From NCBI RefSeq assembly GCF_053078305.1, contig NZ_CP166879.1: a stretch of 64,000 bases of DNA. The stretch is one strand, 5' to 3'. Made by a program: the position numbers. How positions within the stretch are numbered: position 1 is the stretch's first letter; each line of letters starts with the position of its first letter. This document shows positions 27,001-30,000 of the stretch, piece after piece.

Positions 27001-30000
27001 CATCAAATTAATGCCTCTTCTCATTTCTTCTGCTGTCATCCGCACAGCAGAAGAATTCCTCATTGACTATTATCGCGCAATTTGCTCACATGGATTAAAT
27101 TAAACTACATACTATAAGATATAAACTTCTGCCTACAGCTGTAAGAAACTCCGCTCAGTACTGAAGCACCAGTCCTATTTCCTCTTTTCTCCAGCCTGTT
27201 ATATTAAGCATACTGATTAACGATTTTTAACGTTATCCGCTAAATAAACATATTTGAAATGCATGCGACCACAGTGAAAAACAAAATCACGCAAAGAGAC
27301 AACTATAAAGAAATCATGTCTGTAATTGTGGTTGTCTTATTACTGACCCTTACGTTGATAGCCATTTTTTCGGCAATTGATCAGCTGGGCATTTCAGAAA
27401 TGGGTCGCATTGCAAGAGATCTTACACATTTCATTATCAATAGTTTGCAAGACTGAAAATAAACAGCAAATTATAAATATGAAATGTTAAAAAAGTATCG
27501 ATAAAAACTTTATTGTTTTAAGGAGATAAAATGTCGCTCGTTTGTTCTGTTATATTTATTCATCATGCCTTCAACGCTAACATTTTAGATAAAGATTACG
27601 CCTTCTCTGACGGCGAGATCCTGATGGTAGATAACGCTGTTCGTACGCATTTTGAACCTTATGAGCGGCATTTTAAAGAAATCGGATTTAATGAACATAC
27701 CATTAAAAAATATCTACAATGCACTAACATCCAGACAGTGACGGTGCCTGTTCCTGCGAAGTTTTTACGTGCTTCAAATGTACCGACTGGATTGCTTAAT
27801 GAAATGATTGCTTATCTCAACTCGGAAGAACGCAATCATCATAATTTTTCAGAACTTTTGCTTTTTTCTTGCCTGTCTATATTTGCCGCATGCAAAGGTT
27901 TCATTACACTATTAACTAACGGTGTGCTATCCGTTTCCGGGAAAGTGAGAAATATTGTCAACATGAAGCTGGCGCACCCATGGAAGCTGAAAGATATTTG
28001 TGACTGCCTGTACATCAGTGAAAGCCTGTTGAAGAAAAAACTAAAGCAAGAGCAAACGACATTCTCACAGATTCTATTAGATGCCAGAATGCAGCACGCA
28101 AAAAATTTGATACGCGTAGAAGGTTCAGTCAATAAAATTGCCGAACAATGTGGTTATGCCAGTACATCTTATTTTATTTATGCGTTCCGCAAACATTTCG
28201 GCAACAGTCCGAAGAGAGTTTCTAAGGAGTATCGTTGTCAAAGGCACACGGGTATGAACACGGGCAACACGATGAATGCTTTAGCTATTTGATTATTTGC
28301 TAACGAGTAGTCAACCACACACGCTACGTAAGAATTAAATGGGGCAGCCATTCCCTGCCCCGCGTTGTTTTTAGGCGATAGATTTATTGAAATAAATAAG
28401 TGACATTCATCACATATTTATGCATTTGCATAACCTGTTGCATGATTATTTATGATCTCAATTCGGCATTTTGTCAGTAAAATACAATAATTTATTAAAT
28501 ATCAATAGATTAGTTGTTTATCGGCGAGAAATTACTTAGTAGAACAGAAAGTAATGTCAACGCTTTATGGACTGTTATTTCCCTTTTTTTAGCTAAATCT
28601 GCTATCTCTTTATGTGACTAACTTCACTTACATCCACTTATTTCTCTTCGTAAAATTACTTTGGAATTAAGTACAATAAGAAGAGGAACATTTATGAAGT
28701 CTGCATTAAAGAAAAGTGTCGTAAGTACCTCGATATCTTTGATACTGGCATCTGGTATGGCTGCATTTGCTGCTCATGCAGCAGATGATGTAAAGCTGAA
28801 AGCAACCAAAACAAACGTTGCTTTCTCAGACTTTACGCCGACAGAATACAGTACCAAAGGAAAGCCAAATATTATCGTACTGACCATGGATGATCTTGGT
28901 TATGGACAACTTCCTTTTGATAAGGGATCTTTTGACCCAAAAACAATGGAAAATCGTGAAGTTGTCGATACCTACAAAATAGGGATAGATAAAGCCATTG
29001 AAGCTGCACAAAAATCAACGCCGACGCTCCTTTCATTAATGGATGAAGGCGTACGTTTTACTAACGGCTATGTGGCACACGGTGTTTCCGGCCCCTCCCG
29101 CGCCGCAATAATGACCGGTCGAGCTCCCGCCCGCTTTGGTGTCTATTCCAATACCGATGCTCAGGATGGTATTCCGCTCACAGAAACTTTCTTGCCTGAA
29201 TTATTCCAGAATCATGGTTATTACACTGCAGCAGTAGGTAAATGGCACTTGTCAAAAATCAGTAATGTGCCGGTACCGGAAGATAAACAAACACGTGACT
29301 ATCATGACAACTTCACCACATTTTCTGCGGAAGAATGGCAACCGCAAAACCGTGGCTTTGATTACTTTATGGGATTCCACGCTGCAGGAACGGCATATTA
29401 CAACTCCCCTTCACTGTTCAAAAATCGTGAACGCGTCCCCGCAAAAGGTTATATCAGCGATCAGTTAACCGATGAGGCAATTGGCGTTGTTGATCGTGCC
29501 AAAACACTTGACCAGCCTTTTATGCTTTACCTGGCTTATAATGCTCCGCACCTGCCAAATGATAATCCTGCACCGGATCAATATCAGAAGCAATTTAATA
29601 CCGGTAGTCAAACGGCAGATAACTACTACGCTTCCGTTTATTCTGTTGATCAGGGTGTAAAACGCATTCTCGAACAACTGAAGAAAAACGGACAGTATGA
29701 CAATACAATTATTCTCTTTACCTCCGATAATGGTGCGGTTATCGATGGTCCTCTGCCGCTGAACGGGGCGCAAAAAGGCTATAAGAGTCAGACCTATCCT
29801 GGCGGTACTCACACCCCAATGTTTATGTGGTGGAAAGGAAAACTTCAACCCGGTAATTATGACAAGCTGATTTCCGCAATGGATTTCTACCCGACAGCTC
29901 TTGATGCAGCCGATATCAGCATTCCAAAAGACCTTAAGCTGGATGGCGTTTCCTTGCTGCCCTGGTTGCAAGATAAGAAACAAGGCGAGCCACATAAAAA

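Follow-up and report, generated by a model that had tools for sequence, protein, structure and literature searches.

Likeness of the EvgA-activated ydeP and safA-ydeO promoters of Escherichia coli over the whole promoter and leader start, an apparent cassette duplication

The window analysed in this study is a stretch of 64,000 nucleotides (nt) of Escherichia coli DNA (NCBI RefSeq assembly GCF_053078305.1, contig NZ_CP166879.1), and the site of interest is the promoter region between the genes ydeP and safA. A 3.3-kb query spanning this site was matched in 5389 of 5426 complete E. coli genomes. According to the RefSeq annotation of near-identical E. coli DNA, the gene order is ydeQ, ydeP, safA and ydeO. 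The coding sequence of ydeP (759 aa) occupies 24732-27011 and that of safA (65 aa) 27259-27456, each given by an open reading frame and the annotation, and ydeO (253 aa) follows at 27531-28292, where homologues agree as well. These genes, and the boxes, extensions, -10 elements, leaders and hairpin described below, all lie on the plus strand. The segment flagged by the first-pass annotation is located inside the 247-bp spacer between ydeP and safA, and the gene names used there were right according to RefSeq. The safA-ydeO operon is known to be driven from this DNA by an acid-inducible promoter that EvgA activates, and direct activation of both ydeP and safA-ydeO by EvgA has been reported (PMC11210196; bioRxiv 10.64898/2026.05.06.723403; PMC8147483; PMC7174508).

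The primary EvgA box of the safA-ydeO promoter, TGCCTACAGCTGTAAGAA, is found at 27130-27147 and matches 15 of the 16 specified positions of the pattern TTCYTACA-NN-TGTAAGAA, so the second EvgA box proposed upstream of safA-ydeO is indeed present. Its matrix score of 24.1 equals the best of the known boxes, and it stands 112 nt before the safA ATG (27259), in the same orientation as safA-ydeO. The primary box of the ydeP promoter, ATCCTACACCTGTAAGAA at 24471-24488, was read directly and shows zero mismatches to the core pattern. The definition of the 18-bp EvgA box is reportedly that of Masuda and Church (2003) and Itou et al. (2009). The box core was matched at just these two sites in the window, one on either side of the ydeP coding sequence, and ydeP is thus flanked by two copies in the same orientation, as had been claimed. 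No third copy was found in the window even with 3 mismatches allowed. Each query matched at one place in the E. coli genomes, and in a metagenome pattern scan with 80 loci analysed, all 103 module hits among the matches listed were of the ydeP type or the safA type. With two copies in the window and all 103 listed hits in two known contexts, the module is therefore not a dispersed repeat.

The alignment of 27132-27180 with 24473-24521 contains 39 identities in 49 positions (79.6%) without a gap, at an offset of 2659, in agreement with the identity of about 80% to the ydeP upstream region noticed at first. On this diagonal, the box core is identical at 16 of 17 positions, the 32 bases 3' of the 18-bp box at 23 (72%), and the following 57 bases at 28 in the window strain. 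The local alignment score of the two intergenic regions was 34, against 11.0 +/- 1.5 and a maximum of 19 in 2000 dinucleotide shuffles. When the box was removed, the score was still 20, against 9.8 +/- 1.5 and a maximum of 19 (0/2000 shuffles), so that the likeness does extend well beyond the 18-bp box. Other registers of the two regions peak at 21/32 and 27/49, below the observed 23/32 and 39/49, for which the binomial P is 2e-7 and 4e-14, respectively.

The segment of roughly 50 bp that was originally described is real, but it is an underestimate. Colinear similarity runs ungapped over about 106 bp, with 67/106 identities in the window and 63-72/106 across five genomes, and covers the box, the -35 zone, the extended -10, the ydeP start site and about 25 nt of leader. 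Judged from the alignment, the homologous unit is apparently the whole promoter together with the start of the leader, not 50 bp. The longest exact run common to both copies is 10 nt, and the runs shared by them include TCCGC, TGAAG, AGTC, TGTTA and GATGCTTAAC. The window strain carries a derived safA leader, GATTTTTAAC. Other E. coli strains and the outgroup have GATGC(T/A)TAAC where ydeP has GATGCTTAAC, and in strains with this ancestral safA leader the distal part reaches 32-34/57, with GATGCTTAAC in common with ydeP.

The promoter elements fall on the same diagonal. The 5' end of the ydeP leader lies 178 nt before the ATG, as defined by a probe in PMC11210196, which places the transcription start at 24554; the first 25 nt of the leader (24554-24578, ATGAGAGATGATGCTTACCTTATCG) are near-invariant in five genomes. 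Since the hexamer TAATTT stands 8 nt before 24554, it is at the right position for the ydeP -10, as part of the extended -10 TGtTAATTT at 24538-24546. Relative to this start, the centre of the ydeP box is at -74.5. In the safA promoter, the extended -10 TGtTATATT at 27197-27205 occupies the equivalent place, is invariant in E. coli, and has a hexamer that begins 53 nt past the box end, the same distance as in ydeP. The -35 is poor in both promoters (ATTTTT and ATTTCC in ydeP and safA, respectively). By register with ydeP, we infer a safA start at 27212-27213 within a leader beginning at 27210-27237. Read in this way, the safA-ydeO promoter is an EvgA-dependent sigma-70 promoter.

Between the box and the -35 zone, each promoter has a conserved extension, at 24489-24521 in ydeP (23/32 identical to the safA copy) and at 27148-27180 in safA. 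The half-site matrix predicts weak half-site-like elements in both. Those of ydeP are 24491-24498 (TCCGCGCA), 24503-24510 (TGAAGCCA) and 24513-24520 (GTCTTATT), and those of safA are 27150-27157 (TCCGCTCA), 27162-27169 (TGAAGCAC) and 27172-27179 (GTCCTATT); the last element of each set adjoins the -35 zone. A right-type element (TGAAGC.., coordinate 33 counted from the box) lies exactly 22 bp past the primary right half in 9 of 10 ydeP/safA sequences.

Conservation of the two copies was assessed with a YdeP scan restricted to one genome per species, which returned E. coli-type contigs, loci of Edwardsiella and Yersinia rohdei, and one locus of a divergent Escherichia lineage (L003), with 87.7% nucleotide identity in ydeP. 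Both modules are present in L003, at 2742-2850 and 5392-5500. Identity between E. coli and L003 on the ydeP and safA sides, respectively, is 50% and 58% upstream of the box, 94% and 89% in the box, 88% and 84% at +1 to +32 past the box, 70% and 60% at +33 to +52, and 89% and 76% at +53 to +90. The TG-N-hexamer of the ydeP -10 is kept in L003, and TG-N-TATATT is likewise retained in safA. As the extension is conserved at 84-88% against 50-58% for the DNA upstream of the box, both copies appear to be under purifying selection; the pattern is footprint-like. The presence of both copies in L003 indicates that the duplication, if such it was, predates the split between E. coli and L003. Positions past the box that are invariant among ten sequences cluster in three blocks, T.CGC.CA, TGAAG and GTC.TATTT, spaced by about one helical turn. 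The 118-bp safA module, box included, occurs once in 5371 of 5426 complete E. coli genomes, where it is left unannotated. A contig labelled as a Candidatus Nanosynbacter (Saccharibacteria) metagenome-assembled genome (JARKOR010000108.1, L002) encodes a YdeP 100% identical to that of the window and carries both modules; its ydeP locus is almost certainly a contamination of the bin.

The safA promoter is one of the known EvgA-box promoters (ydeP, b1500/safA, yfdX, frc, emrK and yegR) and no different from them in kind. It shares with them the inverted repeat TTCYTACA-NN-TGTAAGAA located 5' of an acid-induced operon, the spacing from the box to a -10-like hexamer, and a reported dependence on EvgA, which binds these promoters according to the review PMC8147483. 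We compared the two copies with emrK, frc and yfdX (L001, K-12 2478000-2498000) and yegR (L056, K-12 2160000-2175000). A -10-like hexamer was found 48-57 nt past the box end in every promoter, and 52-53 nt past it in ydeP, safA, yfdX and emrK. The half-site matrix was scanned at every position and in each orientation (174 tests), with ydeP and safA counted as one promoter. Two positions came out best, box coordinates 21 (empirical p < 2e-5) and 43 (8e-5), both oriented like the primary left half-site. These coordinates are 20 and 42 bp 3' of the primary half-site, and the second adjoins the -35 zone.

Other parts of the extension set ydeP and safA apart. Past the box, their local alignment score of 20 was the only one among 15 pairs to exceed all shuffles (0/1000), while the remaining pairs scored 7-14. 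The next pairs were ydeP-yegR with 14 (p ~0.02), safA-emrK with 12 (p ~0.02) and frc-yfdX with 11 (p ~0.05). In-register identity after the box was 23/32 for ydeP-safA against 5-19/32 elsewhere, and TCCGC, TGAAG and GATGCTTAAC were not found in the emrK, frc and yfdX promoters. The extension thus appears to be partly an architecture of the whole regulon and partly specific to ydeP and safA. The regulon-wide part would be further shared binding sites in a wider sense, namely phased half-site-like elements and a fixed distance from the box to the -10.

Two of these comparisons deserve mention in their own right. The yegR promoter has its EvgA box, TTCCTACTTATGTAGGAA, 124 nt before the ATG, has TCCTATT at exactly +26 to +32 in common with safA, and shares ATTTAAACACTA-GAGAG, at a shift of 5 nt, with the -10/start region of ydeP (local p ~0.02); possibly, this promoter is a third relative of the cassette that has eroded further. 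On the minus strand of L001, the frc box is at 15507-15524 and the yfdX boxes are at 16501-16518 and 16539-16556, 38 bp apart, so that yfdX, like ydeP, has a co-oriented EvgA promoter on either side. Past the box, AAATG.C.CG...CTCTCTGATT is common to the frc and yfdX promoters, with 19/32 identities in register. As a case of a cis-module copied onto a neighbouring or newly acquired gene, this tandem is a second possible local example, with two co-oriented promoters bracketing one gene. However, the frc-yfdX likeness is much weaker, whereas in ydeP/safA the copied part reaches through the start site into the first part of the leader.

A model for the working of the extension is offered by BvgA, the homologue after which EvgA was named. 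The promoters activated by BvgA in Bordetella pertussis, such as the fhaB promoter Pfha and the promoter Pptx, have a strong inverted repeat farthest upstream and weak sites stepping by two helical turns to the -35. Head-to-head BvgA dimers are bound every 22 bp there, with the last abutting the -35, and sequence alone hardly reveals the weak sites (PMC7250471). Their counterpart would be the predicted half-site-like elements that every EvgA promoter examined has 20-22 and 42 bp past its primary half-sites, and the ydeP/safA cassette probably works in a similar way via phased secondary sites. In the proposed mechanism, phosphorylated EvgA would bind the high-affinity box centred near -74.5, and the extension would supply the weak, helically phased elements, the last adjoining the -35 zone. 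Further EvgA protomers, the C-terminal domain of the RNA polymerase alpha subunit, or both would then assemble on the extension as at BvgA promoters, and the polymerase would thus be recruited to a promoter with a good extended -10 and a poor -35. The fit is one in outline and imperfect. In the EvgA box the half-sites point outward (TCYTA-N6-TAAGA) but in the BvgA site inward (TAAGAAATTTCCTA), and the primary site of EvgA is centred at about -74.5, in contrast to -88.5 at Pfha.

With regard to origin, the explanation we consider best on the whole, and hold with reasonable confidence, combines a local copying of the cassette, purifying selection on both copies and a BvgA-like, multi-site mode of working. 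A cassette of about 106 bp, consisting of the 18-bp EvgA inverted repeat, a 33-bp spacer, the weak -35 zone, the extended -10, the start site and about 25 nt of leader, would have been copied locally, to a distance of 2.66 kb, before E. coli and the divergent Escherichia lineage separated, and both copies would have been kept by purifying selection since. For the duplication itself, which we infer from the ydeP/safA similarity and hold to be moderately probable, no other explanation is as well supported. The original suggestion that a regulatory cassette was duplicated, and not merely a site shared, is therefore strengthened by the colinear, ungapped and pair-specific runs, but only in part, because some of the likeness is the architecture of all EvgA promoters.

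The ydeP gene itself has a GC content of 50-54%, as compared with 34-45% in its flanks, and its closest homologues outside Escherichia are those of Edwardsiella (L004, L005 and L007; 85% amino acid identity), followed by Yersinia rohdei (67%) and by Raoultella and Tatumella (about 56%). Neither an EvgA box nor any flank similarity to the E. coli spacers was found at the YdeP loci of Edwardsiella, Yersinia rohdei, Raoultella and others. These data suggest that ydeP was horizontally transferred between the Edwardsiella and Escherichia lineages. The distinct GC content and the Edwardsiella relatives with unrelated flanks further suggest that an acquired ydeP was given a copy of its neighbour's EvgA promoter, or the reverse.

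Several observations weigh against the combined explanation. The full 18-bp box matrix scores weakly at +22, with -1.6 for ydeP (top 1%) and -4.8 for safA (top 2-3%), and in L003 the full box at +22 ranks only 13/318 and 15/205, poorly kept. The five promoters of the half-site test are not strictly independent, as frc/yfdX and ydeP/yegR may be related, and a second dimer would centre near -53, away from the -35, unlike the geometry of Pfha. Upstream of the box, only 12 of 53 positions (23%) are identical, as at random; hence, of the random flanks that would have spoken for a likeness confined to the box, one is found upstream and none downstream. Searches with YdeP and YdeO homologues, which did not include E. 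albertii, E. fergusonii and E. marmotae, gave no genome with a single, pre-duplication copy, and the YdeO search gave only E. coli variants and a haplotype without the box. Furthermore, the similarity ends abruptly at the 5' edge of the box and identity peaks where the orthologues are most constrained, features for which convergence is a possible explanation.

Such convergence would mean that no duplication took place and that both promoters came to bind the same proteins in the same geometry, namely RNA polymerase, EvgA at primary as well as secondary sites, and perhaps a pair-specific factor, e.g. RcsB or an agent of YdeO/PhoP-linked feedback. The positions identical between the paralogues are largely those invariant among orthologues, and phased weak half-site-like elements at a fixed box-to-(-10) distance are present even in EvgA promoters that look unrelated. 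Moreover, RcsB is required for the acid induction of ydeP (PMC7174508), and YdeO and PhoP reduce expression from the ydeP and safA promoters (PMC11210196; bioRxiv 10.64898/2026.05.06.723403). However, emrK, frc and yfdX, whose activator and polymerase are the same, lack the runs TCCGC, TGAAG, AGTC, TGTTA and GATGCTTAAC, and no motif of a pair-specific factor was identified in this analysis. The likeness also includes the transcribed leader and continues ungapped for 106 bp between adjacent, co-oriented copies. Convergence, the main rival, is judged unlikely, though its share is not negligible.

An ancient duplication whose copies are kept alike by ongoing gene conversion, that is, by concerted evolution in place of selection, is a quite improbable variant. 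Its one hint is that two positions identical between the E. coli paralogues, +20 (C>T) and +52 (T>C), have the same substitution in both copies of L003, when 0.59 co-changed sites of any kind were expected. These two identical co-changes are a marginal hint of gene conversion, concerted evolution or parallel selection, but they are two sites alone, and +20 is polymorphic within E. coli. Paralogue identity is no higher within a genome than between genomes, many paralogue-specific differences are fixed in all genomes, and a longest exact run of 10 nt is a poor substrate for conversion. Chance likeness of AT-rich promoter DNA around a shared 18-bp site has next to no probability. Both regions are AT-rich (34-38% GC) and short two-copy repeats are common in the region, but the box-free score was reached in none of the 2000 or 1000 dinucleotide shuffles, the binomial P and the lack of a rival register point the same way, and the shared blocks contain GC rather than runs of AT. 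Local duplication of the cassette is therefore retained as the preferred explanation.

Some further observations concern variants of the locus. Two genomes (GCA_011763255.1 and GCA_910665035.1; L179 and L180) represent a minority haplotype of E. coli with a YdeO of 273 aa (5001-5822) that is 79% identical to the common one. Their ydeO lies directly 3' of a fimbrial operon and next to IS66, while ydeS/R/Q, ydeP and safA are absent. No EvgA box was found anywhere in the 10.8 kb of this haplotype, the only ydeO locus without ydeP and safA, and ydeO in these strains is presumably not wired to EvgA. In plasmid pKFu015_2 (NZ_CP147132.1, 92.6 kb; L058), a captured piece of chromosome at 2404-5058, corresponding to about 24526-27180 of the window, contains ydeP between two copies of IS3000. 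It starts inside the ydeP module, 38 nt past the box, and ends inside the safA module, 33 nt past the box; given that start, the ydeP box and -35 zone have been lost. Its junctions fall at near-equivalent positions of the two paralogous cassettes, in TATT(G/T).

Within the spacer and the leaders, several other features were seen. A terminator-like hairpin, TTCTTCTGCTGT-loop-ACAGCAGAAGAA, lies 3' of ydeP at 27025-27055 (dG -17.5 kcal/mol, z = -4.65). As it has no T tract, read-through from ydeP into safA-ydeO is plausible. Its stems are conserved in L003, and its 7-nt loop (27037-27043) is inverted there: CATCCGC in E. coli corresponds to ACGGATG in L003, the reverse complement with one change, so the difference is a loop inversion within an inverted repeat. 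No match to Rfam families was obtained at E <= 1 for 24000-28500 on both strands. TTAACG occurs as a direct repeat with a 10-bp period (27217-27222 and 27227-27232) within the initial 20 nt of the predicted safA leader, and this TTAACG-N4-TTAACG is conserved in E. coli and largely so in L003. The safA start-site and leader block that includes the repeat might serve as the operator in the reported PhoP- or YdeO-linked negative feedback. The sole match of a simple promoter scan, TTGAAG-N16-TATATT (24502-24529, 9/12 sigma-70 match), lies inside the ydeP extension, upstream of the EvgA-dependent -10; it was not taken as the EvgA-dependent promoter, because L003 has only a degraded form of its -10 (TTTATT) and the match lacks a counterpart in safA. 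Resemblances to the RcsB box and the GAD box (TAAGAAA-N-TCCGC and TGTTA(A/T)(T/A)TTAA) noticed by eye were rejected as well, since the spacing was one base off and the scores were unconvincing.

That safA (b1500) is preceded by an EvgA box and that both promoters depend on EvgA was established before, and the element itself is hence already known. The present analysis adds that safA and ydeP appear to resemble each other throughout the promoter and the first part of the leader. No mention of this promoter-wide paralogy was found in the accessible full-text literature, a body which excludes the primary EvgA footprint papers. The finding is a modest evolutionary footnote to a well-studied regulon and leaves the known biology of the ydeP-safA-ydeO locus unchanged.

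A wider reading, which we put forward tentatively and regard as rather doubtful, is that the EvgA regulon grew by copying a complete promoter cassette (box, phased weak sites, extended -10 and leader start), one copy of which was placed before an acquired ydeP. Similar copying has possibly occurred for yfdX/frc, with yegR partly similar to the ydeP promoter. In the same reading, TCCGC, TGAAG, GTCYTATTT and GATGCTTAAC may be a cis code specific to ydeP and safA, which could consist of BvgA-type secondary sites for EvgA, of an operator serving RcsB or the YdeO/PhoP-linked feedback, or of both. If this is true, the rapid, strong and self-limiting kinetics by which ydeP and safA differ from other EvgA targets would be set by the cis code.

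Textbooks present the cascade from EvgS/EvgA through YdeO to GadE as the inducible acid-resistance circuit of E. coli, with PydeP and PsafA serving as its standard reporters. For this circuit, the promoter-wide paralogy points to bases beyond the 18-bp box where further determinants may lie, namely 27148-27180, 27210-27237 and their ydeP equivalents, and offers a concrete BvgA-like model for activation by EvgA from about -74.5. It would also illustrate, on a small scale and cleanly, how promoter copying can bring a gene gained by horizontal transfer into a regulon.

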